Origin: a virus
Taxonomy: Duplodnaviria > Caudoviricetes
DNA: 64,000 bases
Virus record (IMG/VR): IMGVR_UViG_3300028591_000094
Location: 32,001 to 96,000 of that record
Reading direction: 5' to 3' (one strand)
Shown in pieces: positions 5,997-42,237 of the stretch. The position numbers and the translations under genes are program-made. Numbering within the stretch: position 1 is the stretch's first letter; each line of letters begins with the position of its first letter. The notes beneath the pieces were generated by a model that ran no database searches, had not been told where the DNA came from, and saw only the letters and a list, made by a program, of their open reading frames with translations.

Positions 5997-6048
5997 GATT
6001 GTACGGGGTTTTTATTGTTTTATAAAGTCAGGCGCTACCTGACACTCG

Positions 6049-6653
6049 TACCGCGAGTGGGACTTGAACCCACACACCCTTTCGGGCAACAGATTTTCCT
6101 GCCACTCTATGTTACCATAGCCAAACAAATAGTGATGCTGGGACTTAAGTAATTCTGAATTATTTCATCAGGCACCATTTTTTAATGTCCCTATAGTCTT
6201 TTGTTTGTTGTGGTCTGGAATACATCATTACCATATTGAAATTCTTGCAAGTAAGATATTTCTGAATTAAACAGAACCTTCAGAATAGACTTCTGTATGC
6301 TATCGCCACATCCAATATCTAATTTCAACTTAGGTATCTCCTATATACTCTCTACACATTTATGATACTCTCAATGTTGGCATCACAGAGGCAAACTTAA
6401 TGCTTGTGAAGTTTCCTCGGACATTAATTTCTCAATTTAGCACGGTATTATCCTTACACATTATTGGTTAGTGTCTTGTTTGGTCACAATTAAGTGCCAA
6501 TTTACGAAGTCACGCTAGCTGTGCTTTTTGGTTATAAGACTTCTTCAAGTTATAAAGGACTTCCACCGTTTTAGGGAGATTCTACATAGGGATTTCTCGC
6601 CTATGCACTCAATTTTCTAAGTCTGTCGTGTCTACCAATTCCACCACCGCGGC
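6049..6653 (-). tRNA. tRNA-Leu(UAA) interrupted by a group I intron (exons 6619..6653 and 6049..6097)
   Basis: Joining ACAGACTT to AAAATCTGT restores a CUUAAAA loop and a full type II cloverleaf. Confidence 0.92.
6098..6618 (-). ncRNA. Group I intron (IC3-like, trnL-UAA site), no evident ORF
   Basis: 5' exon ends in U and intron ends in G; P AAAACGGTGGAA, Q AATACCGTGCT, R GTAGAGAGTATA, S GATGTATTCC; P3 TCTCC/GGAGA. Confidence 0.88.
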
Positions 6654-6825: not shown

Positions 6826-7175
6826 AAAGAAAACCCAGCGCGGACGCTGGGGCGGCGCGATTTAGTTCGCGCCAGACTCGCTTTGGGTGCCCATACTAGG
6901 CAGCCATTGCATAAGAAGTTTTGTTGCCATTTAAACAACATCAGCGACCGTCTCCTTCCCTTGTACTTCTCCGCTGTCAAAACCTGTCACCCCCAAAATT
7001 ATCCTTATCTTACAAAGTATTGTCTTCCAACACGAGCCTTTTTCGATTGCGCTTCAGGATTAGCATCATTACCTGCAATGCTTTCGTGCCCTGGACACTT
7101 TGTAATTTTGTGGAGGTGGAGCGAATCGAACGCTCGTCCAAACGGTCTTTCCTCGGATTATCATCAACCGTCACT
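6826..7175 (-). ncRNA. ssrA: Circularly permuted (two-piece) tmRNA; tag (A)GNKTSYAMAA at 6896..6928
   Basis: Acceptor piece ...GAGCGTTCGATTCGCTCCACCTCCA (ends 7111) precedes coding piece GGGGGTGACAGGTTTTGAC (starts 6994); G3:U70; hairpin plus U-tract after the tag. Confidence 0.88.
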
Positions 7176-7877: not shown

Positions 7878-8513
7878 TCATGTTCTTGATGCAACAAACC
7901 ATGTATAATCATTGAGCCATCCGTTTCGCAAAGCATTTCTATAGCCAGCGGAGCATCTCTTTATAAACTCAGTGATAGACTTGTATTTCAGCGCCTCATT
8001 GAGTGTATTCTTACGATTCCAATAGCCTCTTGGTTTTCGTCTAACTTCGAACCAAGTATATTCATCTAGCCAGCCGTTCTTCCAAGCAACCCCGTATGCA
8101 ACGGCTGCATTCTTCCGAAACTCACCTTTTGACTTGTACTTCTGAGCCTCTTTATGGCAAATCTCCTCAGTCCAATAACCATTTGGCTTCTTTTTGATTT
8201 CAAACCACGTATATTCGTCCATCCATCCGTTTTTACGCGCAACATCGTATGCACTGACAGCATTGATTTCAAATTCATGCCGTGATTTGTATTTCTTAGC
8301 CTCTTCTCGACAAGTTCCCTCATTCCAATAACAGCTTGGCTTCTTTTGGGGTTCAAACCAAGTATATTCATCTAGCCAATTTTTACTCCATGCAAACTGA
8401 TATGCAGCACCTGATTTTTTTGCAAACTCACCTCTTGACTTATATTTCTTAGCCTCTTCATAGCAACGTTCGTAATTGTCCCAATATCCGTTTGGTTTTC
8501 TTTCTTTTTGCAT
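7878..8513 (-). CDS. Tandem-repeat protein (four units of about 51 aa, KPxGYW..EAKKYKS..EF..AY..A.KNGWLDEYTWF), probably a DNA-binding module
   Basis: Internal repeats visible in translation. Confidence 0.75.
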   Translation of the reverse strand: MQKERKPNGYWDNYERCYEEAKKYKSRGEFAKKSGAAYQFAWSKNWLDEYTWFEPQKKPSCYWNEGTCREEAKKYKSRHEFEINAVSAYDVARKNGWMDEYTWFEIKKKPNGYWTEEICHKEAQKYKSKGEFRKNAAVAYGVAWKNGWLDEYTWFEVRRKPRGYWNRKNTLNEALKYKSITEFIKRCSAGYRNALRNGWLNDYTWFVASRT

Positions 8514-8678: not shown

Positions 8679-9902
8679 TCACTTGTTAATCTGATATTTG
8701 TACCTCACGTCGATAAGGAGTTGATTAACCCTGTCGCGGTCGATAGCCTCTGGGAGCGTTGATACTTTCATAGCCTTTTCCATTTCGTCTTTCTTACCTT
8801 CAATATAAGAGATGATTTCCTCATACTCGGTATTTCCCTGACGAATATTCAAGATGAAATCAGCATCGATACCTTTACGGTTTACATGTACCTCACCAGT
8901 CGTGGCGATTTCAAGACCCATATGAAGCAGGCGTACCGCATGGGCCACATTTTTTCTGTCAAACGTCTTTTCCTTGTTTTCAAGATAACGTTGTGGGTTG
9001 CGTTTCTTCACCCAATCCTGGTACTGCTTGTACTTGTTGCAGTGCTGTGTGAAGCCGTCCTTATTGTACGACATGGTGCAGATTGGCATAGCATCTTTCG
9101 GAATCGATGAACAACGCACGTCGTCGGCGGTTCCGTCACCCTTTACAATGCCACGATATCCGATTGGGGTCTGTGTATTCTCAAACCATTCTGGCATTAT
9201 ACTCGTAACAAAGGCACACAGGGTGTTGTTCTTAACATAGTTGAAATATAGTTCATCGTTGACAAACTTCACATAATCCCCATCATACTCATTATGGTTA
9301 TGTGCACCAAAGTCGTAGTATACACCATAGCAATCGGGCATGTTGTTGAGGGATACGAGACCGCAGTATTGCTGTTTCAGACCGCGTGCAGTAAGCCAAT
9401 CGGTCATATTCGACGTACCCTGCTTGTAGGTTGTGTAGCAGAAGTCGATGGGCATCTTACGAACCTCAATCGGCTGTACACAAAGGCGGTTTAATCCGTG
9501 ACACCTTACAATTTGTTGATACGCATAACCCAAAAACGGCTTGAAACACGCTTTCGTTACAAACTCCTGACGATGTTTCTTCAGTTCGGTGATGATTGGG
9601 TGTTCGTAGATGACAAACTCGTCGTCAACAAAAAGAGACTCAAGAATGTTTGGGTTTGAGGTGCAGAGCAGATTCATATACTTTTTCAGTCCATACCACA
9701 CCTTGTCGTGTTTCTCATCACTAATTTCATCCTGGAAATCATAGCCAAGACCAAGCACTTGTTCGATGGGCTCGATGTAGACACCACCTTCGTCCCAGTC
9801 GCTTAGTCCGTTTGGAAGATTTGTAGAGTACACGTGTGAACCTCGGAAGTACCTATAAATCAGAAGATTATTCTTCTCAATGTCTTCAAATGTGTAATTC
9901 AT
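8679..9902 (-). CDS. Predicted nucleotidyltransferase (DNA pol beta superfamily, YcgL/RlaP-like)
   Basis: GSHVY..SDWD..GVY, NPNILESLF and HAVRLL motifs. Confidence 0.82.
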   Translation of the reverse strand: MNYTFEDIEKNNLLIYRYFRGSHVYSTNLPNGLSDWDEGGVYIEPIEQVLGLGYDFQDEISDEKHDKVWYGLKKYMNLLCTSNPNILESLFVDDEFVIYEHPIITELKKHRQEFVTKACFKPFLGYAYQQIVRCHGLNRLCVQPIEVRKMPIDFCYTTYKQGTSNMTDWLTARGLKQQYCGLVSLNNMPDCYGVYYDFGAHNHNEYDGDYVKFVNDELYFNYVKNNTLCAFVTSIMPEWFENTQTPIGYRGIVKGDGTADDVRCSSIPKDAMPICTMSYNKDGFTQHCNKYKQYQDWVKKRNPQRYLENKEKTFDRKNVAHAVRLLHMGLEIATTGEVHVNRKGIDADFILNIRQGNTEYEEIISYIEGKKDEMEKAMKVSTLPEAIDRDRVNQLLIDVRYKYQINK

Positions 9903-10142: not shown

Positions 10143-11564
10143 CTACTCTTTAAACTTCAAGTTTTTGATATTTTTGATGCATTCCTCCTTGGTGATGTTG
10201 GGGTTGTTGAACGCCAGCTTGAGACAATGGTCGAGATATTTCTTGACCTCAGGACCAGCCTCAATACTCTTCACCTCCATTACATCGTTCCCGTTAATCG
10301 GCAGTTTGTAACCGAACATGCGCTTGACACTCTCATCGGATACCATAAGGTCTGCGAGCCTGTCAGCCTGGTTCGGGATGCAATGCTGTGGCGCATGGGC
10401 GTTGTTATCTGCGTCAATTACCTGCAGCAGACGGTACATTCGAGCTGCAGTCTTGCAATCGTATGCCAGTTTTCTGATGGATTTCATCTTTCTGGCTTTA
10501 GCTTTAAGGTCGTTTCCCCAGTTCTTGGTTCTCATGTGGTTCTTGATGTAGAAACACACCTCTTCTATTATGTCGTTGGAGTAACGCATTCTGGACATGA
10601 TTTCAGCAGCCAACTTAGCTCCCACAAACTCATGCTCGTAGAAATGCACACGTCCGTCCTCCCCGACGGTTCTGGTCATTATCTTGCCGATGTCGTGAAG
10701 TACGCAAGCAAGGCGGACGGGTAGATATGCAACACTACCGTCATTTGCCGCATTCTCCACCACTTTCAGCGTATGCTCCCACACAGTACCGAAGTGGTAT
10801 GCGTTCTGCCCCATGTCGTAGGTTTCCTCGAGCTCTGGGATTACATATTCCATCGCATCGGTATCTCTCAGGAGGTTAAGAGCCCTGACGGGGTTGTCCG
10901 TGGTCAGCATCTTGTTGAACTCGTCGGTAATGCGTTCCTGGGATATAATTTCCAGACGGGACGAGTTACGTACCATGGCGTCGAAGGTGAACCTCTCAAT
11001 CTGAAAGTTATAACGGCAGGCGAAACGAATTACACGAAGTATTCTAAGGGGGTCGTCGATAAACACAACGTCTGGGTCGTTGTTGGTGACACGGCAGACG
11101 CCGTCCTTAATGTCCTGCATGCCTTTGCCAGTAAGGTCGAGAACCTCCCCCGTTGAAACATTCCTGTAGAGTGCGTTTATGGTCAGGTCTCTCCGTATGC
11201 AGTCCTCCTCTATCGGAGCGAAAGTGGTAACTGGGTTGCGGCTGTCCTTGTCGTGATACTGCTCGCCACGGGTCTGGACAACCTCAATCTCCTTGTTGGG
11301 AAACTTAGCCAGACGGAACATTGCGGTACCGTATGTGGGATAAATTACAACCGAACCGTCGGTATAACCGTTGTCACGCATATACTCAGCAAGGGCAATG
11401 CCACCGTTTTCAATGTCAACACACATGTCGATATCCTTGATTGGGTTGTGCATAAGCAGGTCTCGAACACATCCACCCACACAGAAAACGTGGTTTTCAA
11501 ACTGAGTCCCCTTGATTACCCCAGCCATAAAATCGACTATGTCCATGAAATCTTTTTCCGTCAT
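10143..11564 (-). CDS. cca: CCA tRNA nucleotidyltransferase with HD domain
   Basis: VGGCVRD, DID, RRDLTINAL, DDPLRILR, SQERI, LHDIGK. Confidence 0.93.
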   Translation of the reverse strand: MTEKDFMDIVDFMAGVIKGTQFENHVFCVGGCVRDLLMHNPIKDIDMCVDIENGGIALAEYMRDNGYTDGSVVIYPTYGTAMFRLAKFPNKEIEVVQTRGEQYHDKDSRNPVTTFAPIEEDCIRRDLTINALYRNVSTGEVLDLTGKGMQDIKDGVCRVTNNDPDVVFIDDPLRILRVIRFACRYNFQIERFTFDAMVRNSSRLEIISQERITDEFNKMLTTDNPVRALNLLRDTDAMEYVIPELEETYDMGQNAYHFGTVWEHTLKVVENAANDGSVAYLPVRLACVLHDIGKIMTRTVGEDGRVHFYEHEFVGAKLAAEIMSRMRYSNDIIEEVCFYIKNHMRTKNWGNDLKAKARKMKSIRKLAYDCKTAARMYRLLQVIDADNNAHAPQHCIPNQADRLADLMVSDESVKRMFGYKLPINGNDVMEVKSIEAGPEVKKYLDHCLKLAFNNPNITKEECIKNIKNLKFKE

Positions 11565-14595: not shown

Positions 14596-16242
14596 TTAAA
14601 CATAATCAAAAGTGTTCATTACACCTTTATTACATTCACCACTTGCTTTCTTCTGCAAGTCTCTTCGGAACGATAGCAATACCTCTTTTACTTTCTCACG
14701 CTTGATACGCTTCGGTTCAAAAGATTTGTTATCACGTTGTTTTAAGAGTTTCTGCTGCAACACGGTTACAGCCACTCTGTTCCTTATATTAATCGCCGCA
14801 TTAACGTCGGCGTTGTCTTCATGCCCACATTCGATACATTCAAACGTTTCCTGATTCGGTCTATTCTCATCTTCTATACACCCACACACGGGGCACATCT
14901 TCGACGTATAACTCGCTTGGACTGTGGATACGGCGATATTGTACTTCCTCGCAATGTGTTCCACTTCATCTTTCAATGAACTGATGCTCAAGGCTCGGAC
15001 AATGCGATTGTAGTTAAGGTCATCGTTTACCTTGTCCTTGATGTACGAGCGACCGAACTGACCGTTTAGGTCTTCCATCACTATATGGTTCACTCCCTGT
15101 TCGGACAACTCCTTGCACATCGTCGCAATGGTTTGTTTCTCAATCTCGAGTATCTTGTGTGATATGATGTCTATCTTCTTCTGTCTACGTTTCGACGGCT
15201 TCCAATCACGACCGTATTGTTTCTTCAAAGTGTCCATACACTTGGATACCTCTGCATAAGCCTTGAGCAAGTCGCGGTCGTAATCATATGTGAGAGCACT
15301 AGAGAGCGTGAACATGTTGTGCTTGACATTCACATCGATACCCACGATATTGCTACCTGCCTCAGGAATGTATCTGTCCTGTTTCTTCGTGAGGATTACG
15401 ACCACCTGTTTCTTCCTCTCGTTGAATACTACGGTATATTCATAATCAGGATTCGATTTCTCATAGTCATGGATGCTTCCGTGATAGTCCTTGTTGAACT
15501 TGACTGGTATGTCAAAGGATTTTCTGCCGAGGCTGCTCAACGATACGAATGCGTTGATTACAGACCCGAAACGAGAGTTATAATCTATTATCAGTTTCTT
15601 ACGACTCCTGCCACGGAATGTGAGGGACTTGAATTCAATCGGATGTTCGGTGTACTTTTTGTAGGTGCGTTCCCTCCTTGACAGTGCAAGCGAATAAAGT
15701 CTATCGAATCCGAACTTCTCTATCTCACCGAGGATTGTCTTGTAGAACATCTGTTTCTTCTTGTCCGCCTTCGGCATTTGTTCGTTGATGTAGTCAATGA
15801 TTCCTTCATTACCGTATCTCGCGAGATATGAAAGTGTGATTGTGAGCGATGAGGACGTTTTGGTGTTTCTCACCTTCTTGAAGTCGCCTTTCTTATTCTT
15901 TTTGGTGTCGCGTTTGTACAGTTCACAACAGACGTAGTGGATGTTTTCGAATGTCAGTTTATGTTTAACGTTCTCGAATTTATTTTGGTAGGTGACGATA
16001 ACATCTTCGTAACACTGTTTGTCGAATGACGACGGCAGTTCTGAATATTTAGCCCGCATTTCCTTGAGGAAATCGAAGGTTGAAACGTCGAGGTAGTCAA
16101 ACAAGTGCTCACAGACGAATTGGGATATAACGTTCTTGTGTTCGCGGATTTTGACAGCAATATCAAGCAGTTCACCGTACTTCTGTGCAGTGAGGTTGTT
16201 CGAGACGAACCTTTTGCTGTATATGCTGTCGTGCTTAATCAT
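14596..16242 (-). CDS. tnpB: Large (548 aa) TnpB/Cas12f-like RNA-guided nuclease
   Basis: RuvC GIDVN, MEDLN, NADVNAAINI; zinc finger CPVCG/CIECG. Confidence 0.85.
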   Translation of the reverse strand: MIKHDSIYSKRFVSNNLTAQKYGELLDIAVKIREHKNVISQFVCEHLFDYLDVSTFDFLKEMRAKYSELPSSFDKQCYEDVIVTYQNKFENVKHKLTFENIHYVCCELYKRDTKKNKKGDFKKVRNTKTSSSLTITLSYLARYGNEGIIDYINEQMPKADKKKQMFYKTILGEIEKFGFDRLYSLALSRRERTYKKYTEHPIEFKSLTFRGRSRKKLIIDYNSRFGSVINAFVSLSSLGRKSFDIPVKFNKDYHGSIHDYEKSNPDYEYTVVFNERKKQVVVILTKKQDRYIPEAGSNIVGIDVNVKHNMFTLSSALTYDYDRDLLKAYAEVSKCMDTLKKQYGRDWKPSKRRQKKIDIISHKILEIEKQTIATMCKELSEQGVNHIVMEDLNGQFGRSYIKDKVNDDLNYNRIVRALSISSLKDEVEHIARKYNIAVSTVQASYTSKMCPVCGCIEDENRPNQETFECIECGHEDNADVNAAINIRNRVAVTVLQQKLLKQRDNKSFEPKRIKREKVKEVLLSFRRDLQKKASGECNKGVMNTFDYV

Positions 16243-16357
16243 TCGATAAAAAAAAGAGGTTTGATTCGGAGTTGCAAAATGTGGAAGCTGGCAACAGGGA
16301 ATTAACCTCAATATGTCTACTTTGATAGGCTTCCACCTCTATCATAATATAAATATC
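16243..16357 (-). promoter_or_regulatory. TATTTAT promoter plus kissing-loop leader RNA (copy 1)
   Basis: GTGGAAGC/GCTTCCAC loop-loop complementarity; homologous to 20443..20568. Confidence 0.7.
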
Positions 16358-16432: not shown

Positions 16433-17260
16433 TTACATTACAGGAATGATGTTGAGTGCATCGAATCTTGCCCTGCCGTCCTCGTTCGTCAGGCAAAACG
16501 CAGGATGTATAATCCAAGGATGGCGCATGTACTCCATGGTGCCGTTCTCGCAAGGGGAAGTCATCATAATGTCCTCTTTGTAGATGAACCTGCCGAACTT
16601 CAAACTGTCGTCGAAACTGTGCCAGTCAACCCCCTTCTCAGCTTTCAGTTTCTCAATCTGCTGGTCGGCGTTGAGCTTTTCCAACTGTTTGTGGGGAAGA
16701 TAAGCCTGGGCGGTCTGAGCCTTGGAGTTACGGATGCAGTCTATTTGTCTGTGCAGGAGCCATCCGAACACATCGTTATAGCATGGTACGTTCCAACATT
16801 TGCAGTCAAATTGGGCTAACTTAAGGCTGGATATAGCGTTTTTGCATACCCCAATGTTAACCGAATTGGGACTTTCGGCTATCGAGCCCAACAGACGAAG
16901 TGTCATCAACTGGTTGAACTTTCCCGTTGCTAAAGACGCTATGATTGAGAGCATCTTGGTAAGGCGGTACCCGAAGAACGACTCGGTTGAATCGTTGTCA
17001 AAGTCGGTCAACACCAGTGAAATCTCATCGGATTGGACATATGCGAACTTGCACCCCGAAACGTTTTCGCAAACATATCTGGCGGTCTCATTCATCATCT
17101 CGATAAAATCGCCGTCAAACGGTTTCCTGAACTTGTTTTTGATAAGGTGCGAAAACGAACGCCCGTCCAGCATCACCATCACATAAGACCTGGGCATCAA
17201 CTTATAGTCGGTGAGTCCGCGATAGTAGTTCATTCTGTCTTTCAAAGTTTCGAATCTCAT
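16433..17260 (-). CDS. tRNA-His guanylyltransferase Thg1-like protein
   Basis: LDGRSFS, KPFD, YVQSDEISL, FDCK, RQIDC..N motifs. Confidence 0.92.
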   Translation of the reverse strand: MRFETLKDRMNYYRGLTDYKLMPRSYVMVMLDGRSFSHLIKNKFRKPFDGDFIEMMNETARYVCENVSGCKFAYVQSDEISLVLTDFDNDSTESFFGYRLTKMLSIIASLATGKFNQLMTLRLLGSIAESPNSVNIGVCKNAISSLKLAQFDCKCWNVPCYNDVFGWLLHRQIDCIRNSKAQTAQAYLPHKQLEKLNADQQIEKLKAEKGVDWHSFDDSLKFGRFIYKEDIMMTSPCENGTMEYMRHPWIIHPAFCLTNEDGRARFDALNIIPVM

Positions 17261-19185: not shown

Positions 19186-20442
19186 CTAATAAAAACTGGA
19201 ATTATTAGTTTTTCCTTCTTGCTTCAACGAATCACTGCTTTTTAGGTTTGTTACCAAACGGTCATCCACAGTTGGGTTCTCCGCAAGCGTAAATTCGGTG
19301 TTACGGACACCTATTGTTCTTATTCCTTCATTCAAGATGTTGATTGCAGCATTCACATCCCTGTCGTGATGCTCGCCGCAAATCGGACAAACCCATTCAC
19401 GGTCGCTCAAAACCAAGTCCTTCTTGATGTAACCGCACTTGTGGCAGGTCTTGCTGCTCGGATAGAAACGGTCAACCAAGACAACCTTCTTGCCGTTTAG
19501 TTCCGCTTTGTCGGTCAGAACTTGTCTGAACCGATACAATCCGATTTCTTGTATCGCCTTTGAAAGTTTATGGTTCTTCAACATTCCTCTGACATTCAAA
19601 TCCTCCATACAAACCAAGTCGTAATCTTTAAGCAGGCAATTCACGACATAGTAGATGTATGCTTCCTTTTGGTTAGTCAATCGTTCAAACGCCTTCGCAA
19701 TTCTGACACGTTGTTTCTCTCGGTTGTGTGAACCTTTGACTTTCCTTGACAGTTGCTTCTGCAACCTCTTGACTTTTTGCTCTTGCTTTTTGAAGAAGTG
19801 CCTGTTATCAAAGACCTCACCGTCACTTGTAATCACAAAGTCCTTCACTCCGAGGTCTATACCAACGCATTGTTTAGTGTGTTTGAATTTGATAAGTTCA
19901 TCCTGCGGTATGTCAACAAGGATTGAAAGGAAGTAGTTGCCGCTCTTGGTTCTCGAAACGGTAGCACTCCTTATGCAATCTTTGTAGTCTTGAAGTCTCT
20001 CGTAATACAAGTCCGAACATCTAAACTTGATGTCCTTGAGGTCTTGAGTTAAAGTTATTTTTCTTTCATTGAATGTGTTGCGCTTTGAAATCGCTTCTGA
20101 CGGAAACAGTGCCGACTGCTTGTCCTTCTTTGACTTGAACTTCGGGAATCCGTTGTGCTGCTTGAAGAACTTTGAATAAGCGTCAAGCATTTGACGGATT
20201 GACTGTTTCATCACCTTTGTGTTCTGTTCTTGCAACCAAGCATAGTTCTCGTCTTTCAATAATGTTCCGTGAAACCACTTGGAAATGTCAGTTAGTTTAA
20301 GATTGGTCTTATCCTCGTCATAGGCATTGCGCTTGAATTCAAGGGTCTTGTTATACACAAAGCGGTAGCATCCAAGTACCTTGTCAAGTCTTGTCTGCTG
20401 TTCCTTGTTCGGATATAACCTTACCTTGATTCCTCGCAACAT
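19186..20442 (-). CDS. tnpB: TnpB RNA-guided endonuclease
   Basis: N-terminal HTH, GIDLG, MEDLN, PSSKTCHKCG, DRDVNAAINI. Confidence 0.95.
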   Translation of the reverse strand: MLRGIKVRLYPNKEQQTRLDKVLGCYRFVYNKTLEFKRNAYDEDKTNLKLTDISKWFHGTLLKDENYAWLQEQNTKVMKQSIRQMLDAYSKFFKQHNGFPKFKSKKDKQSALFPSEAISKRNTFNERKITLTQDLKDIKFRCSDLYYERLQDYKDCIRSATVSRTKSGNYFLSILVDIPQDELIKFKHTKQCVGIDLGVKDFVITSDGEVFDNRHFFKKQEQKVKRLQKQLSRKVKGSHNREKQRVRIAKAFERLTNQKEAYIYYVVNCLLKDYDLVCMEDLNVRGMLKNHKLSKAIQEIGLYRFRQVLTDKAELNGKKVVLVDRFYPSSKTCHKCGYIKKDLVLSDREWVCPICGEHHDRDVNAAINILNEGIRTIGVRNTEFTLAENPTVDDRLVTNLKSSDSLKQEGKTNNSSFY

Positions 20443-21146: not shown

Positions 21147-21226
21147 TGCCCCTGGCAGGACTTGAACCTGCACGCCTTTCGGCACTTGCTCCTAAGGCAA
21201 GCGTGTCTGCATTCCACCACAGGGGC
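21147..21226 (-). tRNA. tRNA-Leu(UAG)
   Basis: CTTGC-CTTAGGA-GCAAG. Confidence 0.92.
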
Positions 21227-21232
21227 ATATAG

Positions 21233-21483: not shown

Positions 21484-21835
21484 GTACACAGAAACTTATG
21501 AAAACTTGTGATTTTCATCAGTTTCCGCTTCCTGCTTCGACGAGCCGCCGCTTCTTAGGCACGTCTCCGTGCGTTCGTCCACGGTTGGGTTCTCCACAGG
21601 CGTGAATTCGGGTCTACGGAACCCTATTATTCTTTCACCTTCCATAAGGATATTAATCGCAGCATTCAAATCCCTATCGTGATGTTCACCACACACGGGG
21701 CAAGTCCACTCACGTTCGCCAAGGGTCAATCCCTTGTAGACATAGCCGCACTTATGGCAGGTCTTGGAACTGGCGTACCACCTGTCCACCTCCACGATTT
21801 CCTTTCCATTCAGGGAAGCCTTGTCCATGAGCACG
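21484..21835 (-). pseudogene. tnpB: tnpB 3' remnant with element right end
   Basis: SSKTCHKCG..CPVCG..DRDLNAAINI..EFTPVENPTVD, similar to 19186..20442. Confidence 0.88.
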
Positions 21836-21903
21836 GACTTGAACCTGCACGCCTTTCGGCACTTGCTCCTAAGGCAAGCGTGTCTGCATTCCACCACAAG
21901 GGC
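21835..21903 (-). pseudogene. Truncated duplicate tRNA-Leu(UAG) fused to the tnpB remnant
   Basis: Near-identical to 21147..21226 up to GGTTCAAGTCC, then tnpB sequence. Confidence 0.85.
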
Positions 21904-21931
21904 AATTCGGTTTTTGTTTGTTTATGTATTG

Positions 21932-23366: not shown

Positions 23367-23972
23367 TTAGTAATATTTTTTTCTGCCCCTACGACCTGAT
23401 TTGTTATGAGATTTATAATTATCTGTAAGTGAATGGCAGTTAGGGCACAGTACTTGAAGGTTATCTAAATTATTATTTGTATAATTACCATCAATATGAT
23501 GTATTTCAAGCGGAATTGTTTGTGTATATTCGTTCCGTTCACCCCATCCACATTTTTCACATTTATAATGGCTTTTTTTCAACAGATATTTTCTAATAAA
23601 ATGTGACAAATTATATTCGCCACTTAAACCGTTGCATTCTCCATTCAGCCACAGTTCCACGTGTTTTTGCTGTCTATACTCACCAGAACATTTCGTTGAA
23701 CAAAATTTATTGGTTGAACTATAGGAATGTTCAAATTCACACCCACAATTCAAGCAAACATGTTTCACCTTTTCTTTTATCGTTTTACCTTTATTAAAAT
23801 GTTCGTTGGGATTTATTTGGCGTTTATTTTTTAACTCAATACCCAACTTTTTACATGCTTTTTTTATTGTGTTAGAGCTTACACCATAATTGCGCCCGAT
23901 TTCACAATATGATACGTTTTCTTGAATCATCTTTTCAAGATTTTCCTTTTCGTTAGACCAATTAATCTTCAT
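23367..23972 (-). CDS. HNH homing endonuclease (free-standing) with N-terminal HTH
   Basis: CEKCG, LEIHHIDGN..NN..NLQVLCPNCH. Confidence 0.92.
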   Translation of the reverse strand: MKINWSNEKENLEKMIQENVSYCEIGRNYGVSSNTIKKACKKLGIELKNKRQINPNEHFNKGKTIKEKVKHVCLNCGCEFEHSYSSTNKFCSTKCSGEYRQQKHVELWLNGECNGLSGEYNLSHFIRKYLLKKSHYKCEKCGWGERNEYTQTIPLEIHHIDGNYTNNNLDNLQVLCPNCHSLTDNYKSHNKSGRRGRKKYY

Positions 23973-24117: not shown

Positions 24118-24473
24118 AACGGTTTTTCTCAGTCATTATAACCATATTGAAATTCTTGCAAGCCTCATTCCGATTAACTGGCTGCCCATTTACTGTTTTT
24201 ACAATCTTATGGACACGTATATGAGTTATAATTCCAATTTAGGCTGCAGGTTTGTGTATGCGTTTATGAGAACTTGAACATCGATTGGAACGCGCGTGTC
24301 TAGTTCAGTAATCTCAATTTAGCTCGGCGTTGTCCTTACACATTATTGGTTAGTGTTGAGAAGTTACTCCGACTAATGTCATTGTTTATCTTATCTATCA
24401 CCTATAAAATAGGACTTCTCTTTTAAAAGGACTTTCACCGAATTAGCCCGCTTCTACTGTTGAAAAAACCGTT
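24118..24473 (-). ncRNA. Free-standing group I intron-derived RNA scaffold
   Basis: 24-nt and 22-nt blocks identical to the 6098..6618 intron; covarying P3; closed by AACGGTTTTTTCA/TGAGAAAAACCGTT. Confidence 0.75.
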
Positions 24474-24476
24474 TTG

Positions 24477-24594
24477 TGTGACAAGGAGGATTCGAACCTC
24501 CACCGTGACCACTTCTTTCGGCGTGCCCGCCTACTTCCAGACTCGAACTGGGGACCAGATGCCTCTGTGCGTTTACCTATTTCGCCATTGTCAC
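24477..24594 (-). ncRNA. tRNA-like RNA with two T-loops and no anticodon loop
   Basis: GTGACAA/TTGTCAC, Leu-type D arm, CCAG-TTCGAGT-CTGG plus GGAGG-TTCGAAT-CCTCC. Confidence 0.72.
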
Positions 24595-27112: not shown

Positions 27113-27930
27113 TAGCGGGAGAGGGACTCGAACCCCCGACCTCAAGGTTATAACATTAATACTCCATTATCATATTCCCAATGGTGGTTAGGGCACAATC
27201 CTATGAGATTGCTAATAGAGTTTATCACGCTTACTGGTGTACAATCATCAAATTCAGAAACTGCTTTTATGTGAGCAACCTCAACATGATTTTTGTAACC
27301 GCAAATATGACAACTTGGATTTTCTGTGTTTTCAAAAAATACTTTTCTAGCATCTTTCTGTATTGCAGAACGAGCGGATTGCCAATTTTTCCTATTTTTG
27401 AACAACTCACCCTTCGTTTTGTTGTGAACATCATCAGTAACTGTAAGTTGTAGTTCCATACCTAACTTCGAACATCTTTCAGTTATTGCTTTTTTGGTGT
27501 TACTTGCAAGACATTTACACTTGTAACCAAGTTTTTTACCAATTTCTACCCAAGTTTTCGATGATTTTATAATATCAATGAACTCTTCATCACTTGGTGC
27601 GTTAACGAATGAAAACGTCTCAGTTTTCTTGTGTGAAAAATTTTCAATTTCGTTAATTTTTCTTCTTTGCGGTAACTTGATACCTAGTCGTTTTGCTCTT
27701 TTTTTTACAGCATTACCACTAATACCAAGTATTTTACCAATAGCGGAATAACTTTCATTCTGCTCTAAAATCATCTTTTTCAAAAATTCTTCTTCATTCA
27801 TAACAACTCTTTATTATAAATAGTTGTTACTTTTAAAAACGAACCTTCTTATTAAGAATAATCTTAGTTCGAATGGGTTTCGGCTTTTAAACCGTAAGAG
27901 CCTTGCGAGCTACCACTGCTCCATCCCGCA
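27113..27930 (-). tRNA. tRNA-fMet(CAU) split in the anticodon by a 746-nt HNH insertion (halves 27898..27930 and 27113..27151)
   Basis: CAAGGCTC joined to ATAACCTTG restores an initiator-type tRNA with a 1:72 mismatch. Confidence 0.85.
27148..27801 (-). CDS. HNH endonuclease inside tRNA-fMet
   Basis: CHICG, VEVAHIK, N..NLIGLCPNHHWEYD; N-terminal HTH. Confidence 0.92.
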   Translation of the reverse strand: MNEEEFLKKMILEQNESYSAIGKILGISGNAVKKRAKRLGIKLPQRRKINEIENFSHKKTETFSFVNAPSDEEFIDIIKSSKTWVEIGKKLGYKCKCLASNTKKAITERCSKLGMELQLTVTDDVHNKTKGELFKNRKNWQSARSAIQKDARKVFFENTENPSCHICGYKNHVEVAHIKAVSEFDDCTPVSVINSISNLIGLCPNHHWEYDNGVLML

Positions 27931-30445: not shown

Positions 30446-32599
30446 TTATAAATTTTCCAGTTCGCTGTCGGTGCAGAGGTAGTCTCCGAAGTCCATTTTC
30501 TCCAAGACGTCATCCATTGGCTCGTGCTCATATATCACATGTTCGCTCGGCTGGTAGTAGTAGTCAGTGCCGTTGTATTTGACCCATGACAGTCCGTTTT
30601 CATCGACGTCGCTACACATATCGAACCAAACGGGCGATGCAAAGTTCTTTCTGCCCTCTGGCGCCTTGATTAGGTTGTATTTTCCATCCGAGCGGCGTTT
30701 AACCAGCATGTATCCGTTGATGACGCGGTATGAATCTATGATTGACTGGAGCTGGTGTCTCCAATCGTTGTTTCCGCTGTCGTTGTTTGGCATGGTCGGC
30801 ACATAGTCGCGATAGTTGCCGCCGATGAAAGCCAGCGGGTCGTGACGGTTGTATGTTCTGTCCCACAGTTGGTCGTCGATATCAACCTTATGCCAAGTGT
30901 CGTTTGGATTCGCCAGGTTCTTATATGATATAGGTATTATAGTTCCGTCGTCGGTTGTAAGCACGGCGTTATGGTCAACATTTCCGTCATATAGAAATCC
31001 CTTCACGCCCGCAGCATGCACTGCATGGTCAGCTCTGCCTCCGATACCTCTGTCTGAACCCAACGGAGCGTTGACAAGAGCGTCGAGCAGTCTTCTGATT
31101 ACCTGGCTGCCAGACCGTCTTCCTATGTCCAGAAGTCCGCGGAGTGTTCCGTCAGCCGCCCATCTTTTGTACTGTTCGGGGAAGAATCTCTGTATCTGTT
31201 CTTCGTATGTTCCCTGTATGCCATATTTTTCAGCCATCCAGGGGTGGGGTGTTATGTATCCATTCGCCACTATATTCTTTGGGGTCGCGTAGCACCATAC
31301 AGTATCGCCGTATACTCTCGGCGTGTTAATCTTGTATTGACAGCCGTATGTACCCGAGCCTAGAAAGTCCGAGTTGTCGTTTCCAGTGCCCCTGAATTCC
31401 TTTGTAAAGCCGTTTTTGGCAATGCTTTCCGTCTGTTTGGACGGAGCCAGGCGGTAGAAGTAGAAGAATTTGCTGTCCTCGTTCGGGTTGTAATCGACCT
31501 CGTCTTTCTCAACGTCTGGGACATATTCATCGATGCCTTCCTTCAGCTGTCTGGATTTTGATTCCGCGATGTTCTGTTGTTTCAATTCCTCTGGTGTGCA
31601 GAGATAGTCCCCGAAGTCCAACTTTTCCTCCAACTCGACTGGGTCGGTAGTGTATTCGTATATGACGTTTTCCGATGGCTGGTAATAATAATAGGTGCCC
31701 TTGTATTTTACAATAGCGAGTCCGTTTTTGTCAACGTCGCTGCACAGGTCGAACCACACTGGCGAAGCGGGTTGTTTTGTCTTCGGGTTGACCAGGTTGT
31801 AGCCTTTGCTGGATTGGACGAGGAAATAGCCGTTCACGCAACGCAGGTTCTCGGCTGACGTGACTTTGTTCGGGCTGTGCGGGTCGGACATAAAATAATT
31901 CTTAAATTCCTTTCCGAACGCCACACTGGGCTCATAAGTATTCGCCGTGACATCCACCGTATCCTGTGTCGCCAGCGGAATCCAAGTGCGCCCGTCGTCC
32001 TTGGTGTATTGATATGGTATGACCCGTTTGAAATCCTTCCACAATCCCCAGTCTCCGCCGTTGTTCCAAAACAGACCGTCGATATCGTAGTGGTGAAATA
32101 TGCTATCGTCAATCTGGCTCCAGTTGCGAACCAGTCCAGCACAACTGCCGTATCTTTTGAGTTTCTGGGCATCGCGCGGGTCTTTCACTAGTTTGTCCAC
32201 CTGTTGCTCAAAGGACAGACTGCCGTGAGCCATTTTTGCCAAATCGTTTGTGAATGTGGCTCTGACGCCTTGGTCAATCAAACATCTGTCGAAACCAGGA
32301 ACCACTATTTTCATGATAACGTCACCGTAACTTGAAGCCATACCAGGGTCTAATTCCCCTTCCAGGGTGGTTGTACAATACAAACCAAACCCATAGACAT
32401 GCGCCCCGTTGCTTCCGATGAACTCCCTGGATACACCAGTTTTCTTTATTGCGTCAATGTTGCGGCTCCACGTCCTGGAATATATTACGAACGATTTATT
32501 GTCTTTTGCGAATCCATGTAAATCGTCAAGGGTGTTGATTCCTTCAATATATTCTTCAACACCCTCGTTGATTATCCTATTGCAACTGTCTGGAAACAT
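30446..32599 (-). CDS. Internally duplicated protein: two copies of an ART/PARP-like domain plus WG-like repeat; probable virion-internal protein
   Basis: I..(T/N)G...EF.G..G.G.Y..YGD in both halves; near-identical ASPVWFD.CSDVD.NGL..YYYQPSE..DFGDYLCT tails. Confidence 0.65.
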   Translation of the reverse strand: MFPDSCNRIINEGVEEYIEGINTLDDLHGFAKDNKSFVIYSRTWSRNIDAIKKTGVSREFIGSNGAHVYGFGLYCTTTLEGELDPGMASSYGDVIMKIVVPGFDRCLIDQGVRATFTNDLAKMAHGSLSFEQQVDKLVKDPRDAQKLKRYGSCAGLVRNWSQIDDSIFHHYDIDGLFWNNGGDWGLWKDFKRVIPYQYTKDDGRTWIPLATQDTVDVTANTYEPSVAFGKEFKNYFMSDPHSPNKVTSAENLRCVNGYFLVQSSKGYNLVNPKTKQPASPVWFDLCSDVDKNGLAIVKYKGTYYYYQPSENVIYEYTTDPVELEEKLDFGDYLCTPEELKQQNIAESKSRQLKEGIDEYVPDVEKDEVDYNPNEDSKFFYFYRLAPSKQTESIAKNGFTKEFRGTGNDNSDFLGSGTYGCQYKINTPRVYGDTVWCYATPKNIVANGYITPHPWMAEKYGIQGTYEEQIQRFFPEQYKRWAADGTLRGLLDIGRRSGSQVIRRLLDALVNAPLGSDRGIGGRADHAVHAAGVKGFLYDGNVDHNAVLTTDDGTIIPISYKNLANPNDTWHKVDIDDQLWDRTYNRHDPLAFIGGNYRDYVPTMPNNDSGNNDWRHQLQSIIDSYRVINGYMLVKRRSDGKYNLIKAPEGRKNFASPVWFDMCSDVDENGLSWVKYNGTDYYYQPSEHVIYEHEPMDDVLEKMDFGDYLCTDSELENL

Positions 32600-36570: not shown

Positions 36571-38136
36571 TTAGTTGTTGCCATAGGCATCCTGCATCTC
36601 CATGTCAACCTCGCCTTTATCCATCTGCTTAGCCTCTCTGAATTTAAAAGCTTCAGTTTTTAATTTGAAGGCTTCAACCTTAGCGTCACCTTCGATACGA
36701 ACCACGATACCTTCGCGTGGAACCTTGTTTTTACACATAGGCTCATTGAGCTCCATTCCGAAGTGTTCCTGGTCGTTTCTCATGGCAATAAGCACATTCT
36801 CGTTCCAATGTTCGGAAACATCGATGCCTGGGTACAGATTGCTGAGAGTGCCGTGGTAGAGAATGTTAATCGGTTTGACCTTATCGGCAAGTTCGGGATG
36901 TTCGTCAATCAAAGCCTTTGTCCAACCCCAAACCTCGTCAACCTCCCATTCGGTATGATTACCCTCTGGGTCGGTGAATGTGATACGGTAGGGCATAAGG
37001 TAGCTCGTACCAGGCTGGCAACCGTAGTCATAACCTTTCTGAATCATTGACTGCGAACCGTCGACATACCCACAAATTTCACCGTACACGGTCATACCCT
37101 CGATAAGGTATGGATAGATGAGCTCACCATATTTCGACCATACATCGGTACCGTAAAAGTGACGCTGAATACCGCTGTTGATGTACTGGTTCTTGATAAC
37201 AGTACGACTTGACGTCACGTTACCGTATTCGAGTTTGAATTGGCTGTTAATATAGTCCTTGATTCGTGCTCTTTCATTATTGACGGCAACTCTCTGCCAT
37301 GGGTAGCGGCACTGGGTCTTTGCAAGAGCTTTCAAACGACGGTACATGCTTTTGTTCTTCACCCTACGGGGCAACGTAGCGGGCAACGGTTTCTTCACCA
37401 GAAGTTTTCCAACAATCAAGCTGGTACCGTGCTCCTTGACCGAAATGAATACTGGTGTTTCAGGTTTAAAACGCCATATATTATCTTGAATTTGGTTAGT
37501 TGAGTAATGGAATGAAAATTGTCCCTCCACCATTCGGTCGAACCTTTTCAGCTTGCGATTGCGTTTCGCAGCCTTGTCAGCTCGTGCCTGTTCTCTGTTA
37601 GATATTCGTGGCACGTAAGCTTTTACGAACAAATCGCCACCGATTGTGTCGAAACAGAAAGGCTCCACGATACCGTCCTCGTTAGGAATGAAACACTGAC
37701 TGAAATCGTAGTTGGCAATTTCAGGTTTCCATTTTGCAAGGGCGTCAATTGTGAACAAGCATCCCTCCGACGGACATTTGCGGAGTTTGACGATGCGTAC
37801 ACGACCGTACTTGTTGAAATAGCCGACGAGTTTCTTGGCTTCGTCTTCCTTGCCCTCGTCCATGAGAGCCTGAACCTCCTCGTAGTTCTTGTTGAGGTGG
37901 CGCTCGCCTATCTCGAACTGGTTGTTGACCGAAAGGAAGTCGGCGTTGACCTCGGTCTCCAGTTTGGCGTAAACCATGATTTCACCCTCTTTCACGTCGT
38001 TTTTGCCTACAACGACATTGAATCCGTTGACACTGGTGCGTGCGAGAAAGTCGGAGCCCTCAATGGGGATGAGCTCGCCGATTCTCACGACCTGTGCACA
38101 GTACTCTTGTTTGTAATTTTCACTTTTTGTAAACAT
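36571..38136 (-). CDS. RNA ligase (Rnl2/DRB0094-like) with N-terminal OB-fold
   Basis: Motif I KEHGT, GEICG, REGIVVR, FKLK; N-terminal PIEGSDFL. Confidence 0.8.
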   Translation of the reverse strand: MFTKSENYKQEYCAQVVRIGELIPIEGSDFLARTSVNGFNVVVGKNDVKEGEIMVYAKLETEVNADFLSVNNQFEIGERHLNKNYEEVQALMDEGKEDEAKKLVGYFNKYGRVRIVKLRKCPSEGCLFTIDALAKWKPEIANYDFSQCFIPNEDGIVEPFCFDTIGGDLFVKAYVPRISNREQARADKAAKRNRKLKRFDRMVEGQFSFHYSTNQIQDNIWRFKPETPVFISVKEHGTSLIVGKLLVKKPLPATLPRRVKNKSMYRRLKALAKTQCRYPWQRVAVNNERARIKDYINSQFKLEYGNVTSSRTVIKNQYINSGIQRHFYGTDVWSKYGELIYPYLIEGMTVYGEICGYVDGSQSMIQKGYDYGCQPGTSYLMPYRITFTDPEGNHTEWEVDEVWGWTKALIDEHPELADKVKPINILYHGTLSNLYPGIDVSEHWNENVLIAMRNDQEHFGMELNEPMCKNKVPREGIVVRIEGDAKVEAFKLKTEAFKFREAKQMDKGEVDMEMQDAYGNN

Positions 38137-39179: not shown

Positions 39180-40010
39180 TTATTCGTGGTCTCTGATTTC
39201 AATCCAGTCGGGGCGCATTCCATCTGTTATAACCGCCCCTAACATTGTGAATTTTACATCATCCCGCACATCGGTGCAGTGCTTATGGTAATGCCCGTAA
39301 GTCCACGACTCCAACGGCTGGTTTTGGACAACTTTGAGTTCATCCCATATCAAATCCATAACATGGCGTTCGTAGTCAATATCGGCAAAAAGCGTTTCGT
39401 CATTCTTACCCCAAGCTTCAATACCGTCTTTCGACTGAGGTTCACAAAAGCTTGGACTGGTATGAGTGCAAACGTGTTTGATAACAATCCCTTGTTTATT
39501 AATCTCATTGAAAGCATCTTGATTGAAAACTGGCGCTTCGTCTGCCCAATATATGTTGTTGGTGTGTGTTGCAGCATCCTCTTCGGTTGCACCTTTATGC
39601 CATTTAAGATAAGCATCCATCATTCGCTGTTTTTCGGACATACGCCACTTGCGGTCGATTGACGTTGCGCCGCCCACCATTAATATGGTGTCATTAAGTA
39701 TAGTGTAGTCTGGAACTGGGAGGATGTATTTGGTTGTAACAATCTTATTATTGAAGAACGCTGGGTCGTCGTGATTACCTCGGAACATAATGATGTACGT
39801 CTGACGGTCTCGACACAACCGATTGAGTTTTTCGAGAGCAACTTTGGTTGCCTCTTTACTGTAGAACCCTAATCCGCAATCTCCGCATACAATAATGCCA
39901 CTATGGTTGATATTATACGTCTTAATCATACTGACAAGCGATGAGAAACAGCCGTGTATATCACCCACGGCATATATTGCTTCAACAGGAATATTGACTT
40001 TATTAATCAT
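39180..40010 (-). CDS. Metallophosphoesterase
   Basis: GDIHG, GD.G, RGNHD, GGATSIDR, THT, GHYH. Confidence 0.9.
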   Translation of the reverse strand: MINKVNIPVEAIYAVGDIHGCFSSLVSMIKTYNINHSGIIVCGDCGLGFYSKEATKVALEKLNRLCRDRQTYIIMFRGNHDDPAFFNNKIVTTKYILPVPDYTILNDTILMVGGATSIDRKWRMSEKQRMMDAYLKWHKGATEEDAATHTNNIYWADEAPVFNQDAFNEINKQGIVIKHVCTHTSPSFCEPQSKDGIEAWGKNDETLFADIDYERHVMDLIWDELKVVQNQPLESWTYGHYHKHCTDVRDDVKFTMLGAVITDGMRPDWIEIRDHE

Positions 40011-41463: not shown

Positions 41464-42237
41464 TTATGATTTATTATATCTCTTAATTTTATATAAATTC
41501 TTTCGCATAAAGCTATGTTTTAGAAGAATTGCTATCTTTCCGAAGATATTTTTTCCACCGTACTGTCTTATTGTTTGAACATACTGGTTGAAATCCCTAG
41601 TGTAGGCTTTCTGGAAGAAATATACCAGAATGTCGTCTGGTGTCAGAAAACGGTAGTTGGCAAGGCGCCCGTCAAGTCCAACGTCCACCCTCAGGTCGGG
41701 GTTTCTTTCATTGAAACCGTCACAGGCACCATGTGAGTGACCGTGTAGTTGTATGGTTCCGTGTTCCTTGCGGTTCCATGACACCATTGGATAGTGGCAC
41801 ATCTCGAAACAGAACGTCTCGCCAGATTCGTCCTTGTATTTGAACTCCTTTATCTGGGTTATCTGCTGGAAATACCCATCCAGCTTGTCACTGTTTCCGT
41901 CATGGTTACCTAGAATCAGGAACTTTTTTCCGTGTAATTTGGATAGCAGTTTCTTGTTTTCCTCAGCCGTGTTGAAAGAGAAATCACCGAGGATGTACAC
42001 CGTGTCGTGTTTCGACACCTGGCTGTTCCACAGGTCAATCAACCACATGTCCATGAGGCTAATGATTTTACCCTCGCTAAACTCTATGTTATTTTTGCGG
42101 CAGTACTCCTTGATTTTCTCGATACGTCTCGGGCAGTATTTGAGAATGTTCTTATGATGGAAGTGGAGGTCTGAGGTAAAATATATTTGCGGTGTTTTTT
42201 TATCCATATTTTGTACTTTAATTATTGTATGTACCAA
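41464..42237 (-). CDS. Calcineurin-like phosphoesterase
   Basis: TSDLHFHH, LGD, GNHD, CHYP, HGHSH. Confidence 0.9.
   Translation of the reverse strand: MVHTIIKVQNMDKKTPQIYFTSDLHFHHKNILKYCPRRIEKIKEYCRKNNIEFSEGKIISLMDMWLIDLWNSQVSKHDTVYILGDFSFNTAEENKKLLSKLHGKKFLILGNHDGNSDKLDGYFQQITQIKEFKYKDESGETFCFEMCHYPMVSWNRKEHGTIQLHGHSHGACDGFNERNPDLRVDVGLDGRLANYRFLTPDDILVYFFQKAYTRDFNQYVQTIRQYGGKNIFGKIAILLKHSFMRKNLYKIKRYNKS

Follow-up and report, generated by a model that had tools for sequence, protein, structure and literature searches.

A split initiator-like tRNA gene in a phage tRNA array

We analysed a stretch of 64,000 nucleotides (nt) of phage DNA (Duplodnaviria; Caudoviricetes), positions 32,001 to 96,000 of IMG/VR record IMGVR_UViG_3300028591_000094 (hereafter the window), in which the gene for an initiator-like transfer RNA (tRNA) with the anticodon CAU is split inside its anticodon by a mobile cassette encoding an HNH homing endonuclease. 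The source record is 168 kb long and was judged to be ∼45% complete, which corresponds to a phage of roughly 350–400 kb, and sheep, goat, and cattle gut metagenomes hold DNA identical or near-identical to the window. The split gene is part of a long minus-strand tRNA array, and all parts of the split locus described below lie on the minus strand. The 5′ half of the tRNA (27930–27898; 33 nt, tRNA positions 1–34) ends ...CAAGGCTC, its final CTC including C34, and the 3′ half (27151–27113; 39 nt) starts ATAACCTTG... and extends from A35 to the discriminator base A73, CCA not being encoded. The insert between them (27897–27152; 746 nt) is composed of a 96-nt leader (27897–27802) followed by the HNH open reading frame (ORF; 27801–27148), with 0 nt of insert beyond the ORF on the 3′ side: the stop codon TAA (27150–27148) coincides with U36-A37-A38 of the tRNA and thus lies inside the 3′ half. 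The original prediction, which had been made from the letters of the window, described two tRNA-fMet halves flanking 746 nt, a leader of ∼96 nt, and an HNH ORF with its TAA in the 3′ half, and it was correct in every detail.

The same leader and HNH gene were found inside tRNA-fMet in 11 other lineages (loci L119, L120, L123, L218, L221, L222, L223, L226, L227, L231, and L232), giving 12 members when the window is included. Because these lineages and duplicate contigs from independent assemblies show the same architecture, the split arrangement is neither chance nor misassembly. Joining the halves between C34 and A35 (C34|A35) resulted in a 73-nt tRNA-Met(CAU), which was accepted by ARAGORN and which has the U1:U72 mismatch and the A11:U24 pair of bacterial initiators. 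Of the features applied here to recognise a bacterial initiator tRNA (CAU, a 1:72 mismatch, A11:U24, and three G:C pairs at 29–31:39–41), the last is represented in the window by only two G:C pairs (30:40 and 31:39); L120 and L231 have three. When run with intron search, ARAGORN detected the split gene but typed it as Lys(CUU) at the canonical intron position, which is one of the two anticodons that had been foreseen for alternative junctions. No other CAU tRNA was found in the window, as originally noted for fMet genes, nor in the whole 168-kb record.

The HNH enzyme and the leader of its gene

The HNH ORF encodes a protein of 217 amino acids that matches Pfam family PF13391 (HNH_2; E 8.5e-9) and HNH families of PHROG. 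The protein has two N-terminal helix-turn-helix (HTH) modules and the HNH domain at its C terminus, and the motif CPNHHWE.D is unchanged across 14 HNH homologues. Consistent with this, the AlphaFold2 model (mean predicted local distance difference test score 89.8) shows two N-terminal helical HTH modules and a C-terminal HNH domain with a β-β-α end. No solved structure matched the model at E ≤ 0.001 in a fold search, the weak matches being only to DNA nucleases (McrA, TagI, Cap5, and Gme HNH) and to HTH DNA-binding domains, and a sequence search of solved structures with the HNH protein returned nothing relevant. As modelled, no feature of the protein suggests an RNA-splicing enzyme. The catalytic motif, the DNA-binding module, and a spread that does not follow the host genome (see below) are those of an HNH homing endonuclease gene; the cleavage specificity of the enzyme is one that we infer from sequence.

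The leader contains several conserved elements. The first two nt (27896–27897) form a spacer, TT in the window and AT in 9 of the 12 aligned members, which is probably one copy, the 5′ one, of an AT target-site duplication of 2 bp. Hairpin 1 (27881–27894) follows, 2 nt past the 5′ junction; it has a CGGU/GCCG stem with an A-rich loop and is paired in all 12 sequences, two of its pairs varying on both sides (AU in six and GC in six for one; UA, UG, or GU for the other). Hairpin 2 (27840–27871) consists of near-invariant inverted CGAAC boxes (TTCGAAC ... GGTTCG) that can pair and that resemble tRNA T-arm DNA. These boxes could be an operator, that is, binding sites for the HTH domains of the HNH enzyme, which would permit autoregulation. 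Further downstream, a promoter-like motif, TATTTAT (27816–27822), always lies 14 nt after GTTCGTTT, a spacing that was checked by hand in four members (the window, L119, L120, and L123). TATTTAT is also present 20–37 nt upstream of the start codons of several ORFs of the same phage, among them a second HNH gene (23367–23971, minus strand). This second gene, a free-standing paralogue immediately following tRNA-Thr(UGU), shares the N-terminal HTH module with the cassette gene and has its TATTTAT 25 nt before the ATG. Finally, hairpin 3 (27802–27828; AACAACT/AGTTGTT) encloses TATTTAT and abuts the ATG of the cassette gene, and in L119, L120, and L123 the letters of its stem change with pairing retained. 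In a read-through RNA, hairpin 3 would mask the start codon. The leader elements can thus be read as expression control of the endonuclease gene, which would account, with no need for splicing, for the greater part of the conserved leader; only hairpin 1 is left without an explanation by this reading.

In three rumen metatranscriptome runs, parts of the HNH gene were matched at 100% identity by contigs with a depth of 2–3. No contig in those metatranscriptomes joined 27151 to 27898, a result which, as it comes from contigs and not reads, has no bearing on splicing. The single exact 746-nt joint that was encountered came from a DNA run, had only 21 nt on one side, and is attributed to some other uninterrupted tRNA-fMet.

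A mobile cassette family associated with tRNA-Met genes

A back-translation scan for relatives of the HNH gene led to 39 viral loci. In these, the HNH gene is found inside a tRNA-Met gene (L119, with 68% identity, L120–122, L123, L124/125, and L140), ∼160 nt downstream of an intact tRNA-Met (L127–L137 and L141–146), or upstream of tRNA-Met, ending within a few bases of its start (L139, L147, and L149–154). A search of metagenomes with the leader pattern added nine more inserted copies, all nine leader-like matches lying inside an initiator-type tRNA; other hits to the pattern, which bore no resemblance to the leader, were set aside. Among cultured phages, the DNA search returned tRNA matches and one short match to an HNH gene of Streptomyces phage TomSawyer, a related gene that ends 7 nt ahead of a tRNA gene, and the protein search returned two partial HNH matches only; no laboratory phage with the cassette was found. 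Several large phages carry tRNA-Met(CAU) genes of 84–89 nt with a long extra arm, which is unusual for Met (L138:3604-3688, L143:2621-2707 and 2910-2993, L152:3318-3406, and G004:156924-157012), and these genes often adjoin HNH genes of the cassette family.

On the 3′ side of the junction, all 12 have AT followed by AA[C/G]C; on the 5′ side, CTC is followed by AT in nine, by TT in two (the window and L226), and by AC in one (L120), and the truncated copy L229 also has TT. Because of these flanking letters, C34|A35 is the sole junction that yields CAU in all 12. AT flanks most copies at either end, a repeat that looks as if it had been left by an original insertion at a cut with a 2-nt stagger.

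Further, the cassette is more similar between phages than their genomes are. Between the window phage (G000) and G001, a complete genome of 387 kb in which L119 lies, the median protein identity is 36% (42 orthologue pairs), whereas their HNH proteins are 68% identical and the whole elements 72% identical in DNA. The histories of exons and insert are also discordant: L223 and L221 differ by 5% in the exons and by 37% in the ORF; L123 and L232, which have different flanks, differ by 11% in the exons and by 8% in the ORF; and L218 and L223 differ by 3% and 1%, respectively. The discordance, together with the cassette similarity above genome similarity, therefore argues for spread by homing, and these comparisons show that the cassette has evidently moved horizontally between distantly related phages. 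The family is old and diverse, the DNA of the insert ORF diverging by up to ∼40%, although each insertion may be young. Of the recent inactivating insertion put forward in the original prediction, the homing cassette is thus the part that has gained support, from a family tied to tRNA-Met, from transfer, and from decay (see below), whereas "recent" has to be qualified. The HNH phylogeny does not resolve inserted from free-standing genes, nor one from several invasions of tRNA. A 17-mer of the window tRNA was present in 117 viral loci, 85 of them uninterrupted; split genes were found only in L072 and L097, and no empty-site allele of the same phage was among the loci retrieved.

These two loci carry inserts of other kinds. 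In L072 (2621–2773, plus strand), the 5′ half of tRNA-fMet is identical to that of the window, the rest of the tRNA is perfect, and an 80-nt insert without an ORF lies between positions 36 and 37. The insert opens with hairpin 1, again 2 nt past the junction, and its 3′ part forms an acceptor-like stem and a T-arm-like hairpin, with one unpaired base before the junction. In L097 (8294–8883, minus strand), the insert, which leaves no room for a ribozyme, interrupts tRNA-fMet at a junction compatible with the insertion site in the window. This insert holds a gene for a PD-(D/E)XK protein of 141 amino acids (PF11645, E 4.7e-19) that weakly resembles PDB 2OST, the structure that we take to be I-Ssp6803I. 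The endonuclease gene is followed by a complete tRNA-Met-like gene, in which C1:A72 is a mismatch and which the L097 mobile element may carry as a replacement tRNA. Since a second endonuclease family occupies a compatible site, the anticodon-loop DNA of initiator tRNA genes appears to be a repeated homing target in these phages.

Known splicing signatures are absent from the insert

We next looked for signatures of known splicing mechanisms. Rfam scans of the region (E ≤ 1) and of the insert alone (E ≤ 10, with the laxest filters) reported no ribozyme family, Intron_gpI included. The insert begins UUACGG and ends UGUU, so its first and last bases are both U, and the last base is U or A in all 12 members. 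In bacterial tRNA group I introns, U at −1 is combined with a 3′-terminal G in 98.5% of cases (Williams 2020, bioRxiv 10.1101/2020.01.27.920355). This combination was found at none of eight anticodon-loop positions in the window sequence and the 12 aligned members. The sole junction option in the window that ends in G has C at −1 and gives the anticodon UAU, the other of the two alternatives foreseen, and it is missing in the relatives. Further, the classical initiator-tRNA intron occupies position 2, after U33 (fMet.2Ug; bioRxiv 10.1101/2020.01.27.920355), whereas the insert described here follows C34. With regard to group II introns, the insert (UUACGG...UGUU) has no 5′ GUGYG, 3′ AY, or domain V and gave no Rfam match.

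A bulge-helix-bulge, defined as splice sites within two 3-nt bulges 4 bp apart, was not formed in either register on inspection of the 12 members, the would-be central helix of 4 bp having three of four pairs in the window and two of four in most relatives. A consensus fold of 11 members contained no long-range pairing, only the cloverleaf, two leader hairpins, and a stem constrained by the protein. The first and last 7–8 nt of the insert do not pair with each other, and there is neither an acceptor-like stem nor a T-arm fold that could direct cuts by RNase P or RNase Z. The EndA (PF01974) and RtcB families were not found in the 168-kb record, which is itself ∼45% complete. Overall, the original statement that there is no space for a group I or II core, no terminal G, and no bulge-helix-bulge was borne out by the Rfam scans, the junction letters, and the fold.

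To look for an RNA element within the coding sequence, we compared codon identity at conserved residues between five inserted and four free-standing HNH homologues. It was ∼0.4–0.6 throughout the ORF in inserted and free-standing homologues alike and slightly higher in the first ∼20 and the last ∼15 codons. Constraint on synonymous sites is thus not clear, and a hidden RNA core inside the ORF is unlikely.

Decay and integrity of the split tRNA

Comparison of both halves among related phages had been named at the outset as a check, with decay as the outcome that speaks against splicing. Signs of decay were found in some relatives: in L227, the HNH gene is riddled with stops, the anticodon arm has extra bases, and the joined product is no longer tRNA-Met; in L140, the 5′ part of the anticodon loop is missing; in L124/125, the D region is abnormal and the joined halves are not recognised as a tRNA, the HNH gene being intact; and in L226, the acceptor stem is aberrant. 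In addition, the HNH gene of L123 has an in-frame TGA. A parse of stem mismatches in 53 uninterrupted tRNAs gave 15 apparent defects, which are probably parsing errors, and is too crude to serve as a baseline.

By the same check, joining at C34|A35 still gives a perfect tRNA-Met in 11 of the 12 close members. We rejected exon integrity as a sign of selection or splicing because the histories of exon and insert are discordant: intact exons can come from recently invaded alleles. Some exon differences are compensatory, at positions 10 and 25 between L218 and L223 and at 5:68, 7:66, and 51:63 between L123 and L232. Such changes fit selection on a working tRNA and, equally, homing into different pre-existing alleles, and the exon variants of close pairs also occur in other lineages.

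Probable insertion without splicing and rival readings

We lean, at somewhat better than an even chance, towards a homing-endonuclease insertion into the initiator tRNA gene that lacks a ribozyme and is not spliced. Because there is no ribozyme, the split tRNA is most likely not rejoined, which would leave the phage without an initiator tRNA of its own, a loss of function that we infer from the letters of the locus. A cassette of the free-standing type would occupy the very DNA that its enzyme targets, the anticodon loop of initiator-type tRNA-Met genes of phages. During mixed infection, the HNH enzyme would cut an uninterrupted tRNA-fMet gene, and repair from cassette-bearing genomes would copy the cassette into the cut gene. 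The leader would serve the endonuclease gene, with TATTTAT as its own promoter, the start-masking hairpin, and the CGAAC boxes for autoregulation, and the phage would rely on the host initiator tRNA after the loss of its own.

Several observations weigh against this reading. The perfect joined products and the compensatory exon changes described above are among them. The complete genome G001 has no initiator-type tRNA besides the split gene. In G003, likewise a complete genome, neither of the two unsplit CAU tRNAs is of the initiator type; G003's own split tRNA-Met (L124), with its aberrant D-arm, is not clearly initiator-type either. Further, the covarying hairpin 1 stands directly at the 5′ junction, upstream of the cassette promoter, and is therefore only in the read-through pre-tRNA transcript, which suggests an RNA-level role in the pre-tRNA. 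The persistence of the short L072 insert in an intact tRNA is what is expected of a spliced intron. Finally, each of the five phage records searched has at least one gene of the PF09414 ligase family.

The main rival, possible if doubtful, is that the insert is a true tRNA intron without a ribozyme, removed by protein-dependent cutting, perhaps with hairpin 1 and the folded body of the tRNA as guides, and with a phage RNA ligase resealing C34 to A35. The pre-tRNA would fold as a cloverleaf with a giant anticodon loop, and a cellular or phage endonuclease would cut both junctions, each of which lies 5′ of A/U-U-A in an A/U-rich single strand, the 5′ one 2 nt before hairpin 1. T4 RNA ligase 1 seals broken anticodon loops. 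The fixed 2-nt distance of hairpin 1 from the 5′ junction, in the cassette and in the L072 insert, argues for such a route, as does the fact that C34|A35 alone gives CAU in all 12 members. The window also encodes a set of tRNA maturation and RNA-repair enzymes, of which the ligase, the phosphoesterases, and a nucleotidyltransferase had already been recognised in the original prediction: an RNA ligase (36571–38136, minus strand; a PF09414 match below the Pfam cut-off, supported by PHROG 968), two metallophosphoesterases (39180–40010 and 41464–42237), an RlaP-type nucleotidyltransferase (8679–9902, minus strand), a CCA-adding enzyme with an HD domain (10143–11564, minus strand), and a Thg1-like 3′-5′ polymerase (16433–17260, minus strand). 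Further, unexplained tRNA introns have been reported for Lak megaphages (PMC6784885). Against protein splicing, no cutting enzyme was identified, with the EndA and RtcB families missing from the ∼45% complete record of 168 kb, and no symmetric cut signal was seen; there is no bulge-helix-bulge, and the insert ends form no acceptor stem, so RNase P and RNase Z cannot define the junctions. No conserved structure marks the 3′ junction, which falls within the ORF's last codon, the conservation of AT on the 3′ side is also accounted for by the stop codon, and decayed copies exist.

Self-splicing, by a reduced group I core hidden in the ORF or by an undescribed small ribozyme of the 96-nt leader, is in our view very improbable. 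In its favour, bacterial tRNA-fMet group I introns with endonuclease genes are known (fMet.2Ug; bioRxiv 10.1101/2020.01.27.920355), the leader is structured, and a 510-nt insert with a terminal G interrupts tRNA-Leu(UAA) of the same phage at U34|A35. However, besides the absence of an Rfam match at E ≤ 10 and of U(−1) with a terminal G at the eight loop positions, no internal guide sequence tracks the exon changes, synonymous sites are not clearly constrained, and the 96 nt outside the ORF are a conserved leader that mostly fits a promoter and operator.

Least probable of all is that the halves are made as separate RNAs and assembled in trans, like the split tRNAs of Nanoarchaeum: the cassette promoter could yield an HNH mRNA ending in the 3′ half, but no complementary extensions follow the 5′ half or precede the 3′ half, so that this part of the original prediction found no support, and a nick within the anticodon, between bases 34 and 35, would still demand exact trimming and sealing.

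Relation to known systems

An insertion that is not spliced would resemble SegB of phage T4 and F-TflI, F-TflII, and F-TflIV of phage T5, homing endonuclease genes that stand free within the tRNA gene clusters of those phages. In each case, a selfish endonuclease gene with its own promoter would reside in a phage tRNA array, spread by recombinational repair, and presumably cut the tRNA region in the DNA of competing phages. The T4 and T5 genes are located between tRNA genes, whereas the cassette lies inside an anticodon loop and encodes an HNH_2 enzyme with N-terminal HTH modules. I-TevI, in the td intron of T4, has its own late-type promoter, a start-masking hairpin in read-through RNA, and autorepression. 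The cassette appears similar, with a putative promoter in the insert, a hairpin that would hide the start, and target-like boxes near the promoter; I-TevI, in contrast, lies in an intron that is functional and splices itself.

The cyanobacterial tRNA-fMet group I intron with I-Ssp6803I likewise places an endonuclease gene in the initiator anticodon loop (bioRxiv 10.1101/2020.01.27.920355), and the phage relative at L097 carries a gene of the I-Ssp6803I family at a compatible junction. The cassette differs in having neither a group I core nor U(−1) with a terminal G, in a junction after C34 and not U33, and in an enzyme that is HNH and not PD-(D/E)XK. Lak megaphages have "enigmatic" tRNA introns that are short and ORF-less, one of which may encode a tRNA (Devoto et al. 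2019, PMC6784885). Both cases concern inserts that cannot be classified, in tRNA genes of gut phages that are very large and have Prevotella-type hosts, whereas an HNH-bearing insert is not described in that work. Lak megaphage B1 has a tRNA of the same initiator type without an interruption. We found no publication describing an HNH cassette in tRNA-fMet, these enigmatic introns being the nearest (PMC6784885).

The family is widespread, and its place within the anticodon of a conserved tRNA of phages offers no intron or intein as shelter. To our knowledge, homing endonuclease genes have been thought to survive within genes only under cover of a self-splicing intron or an intein. If the cassette is selfish and not spliced, its spread would be strong enough to keep destroying the phage initiator tRNA, which bears on the dispensability of phage tRNAs. 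If it is spliced, this would be an undescribed form of tRNA splicing, catalysed by proteins in a virus of bacteria, in which the intron carries a homing endonuclease gene, and would link the RNA-repair genes of giant phages to intron removal. In either case, the family supplies natural variants: intact, split, ORF-less, and decayed.

Other elements of the window

The tRNA-Leu(UAA) gene mentioned above (6048–6653, minus strand) is split at U34|A35 by its 510-nt, G-ending insert, and a second, exon-less copy of the insert (24118–24473, minus strand), with blocks 91–93% identical, sits between a 118-nt tRNA-like gene and tRNA-Thr. Neither copy was reported by the Rfam group I model at E ≤ 1. The 118-nt gene (24477–24594, minus strand) scores 42.8 bits with the Rfam tRNA model, has no ARAGORN call, and may be an interrupted or extended tRNA. 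A circularly permuted, two-piece transfer-messenger RNA gene lies at 6896–7172 on the minus strand (RF04321, 63.8 bits, above the gathering score). Two full TnpB (IS605 OrfB) genes and one fragment are present in or near the array (14596–16311, 19186–20442, and 21496–21897, minus strand), the fragment being flanked by a 70-nt, 99% identical duplicate of tRNA-Leu(UAG) (21158–21227 and 21835–21904). Finally, four tandem 153-nt units (7893–8466), 63–77% identical over a 115-nt core, lie within the ORF 7878–8513.

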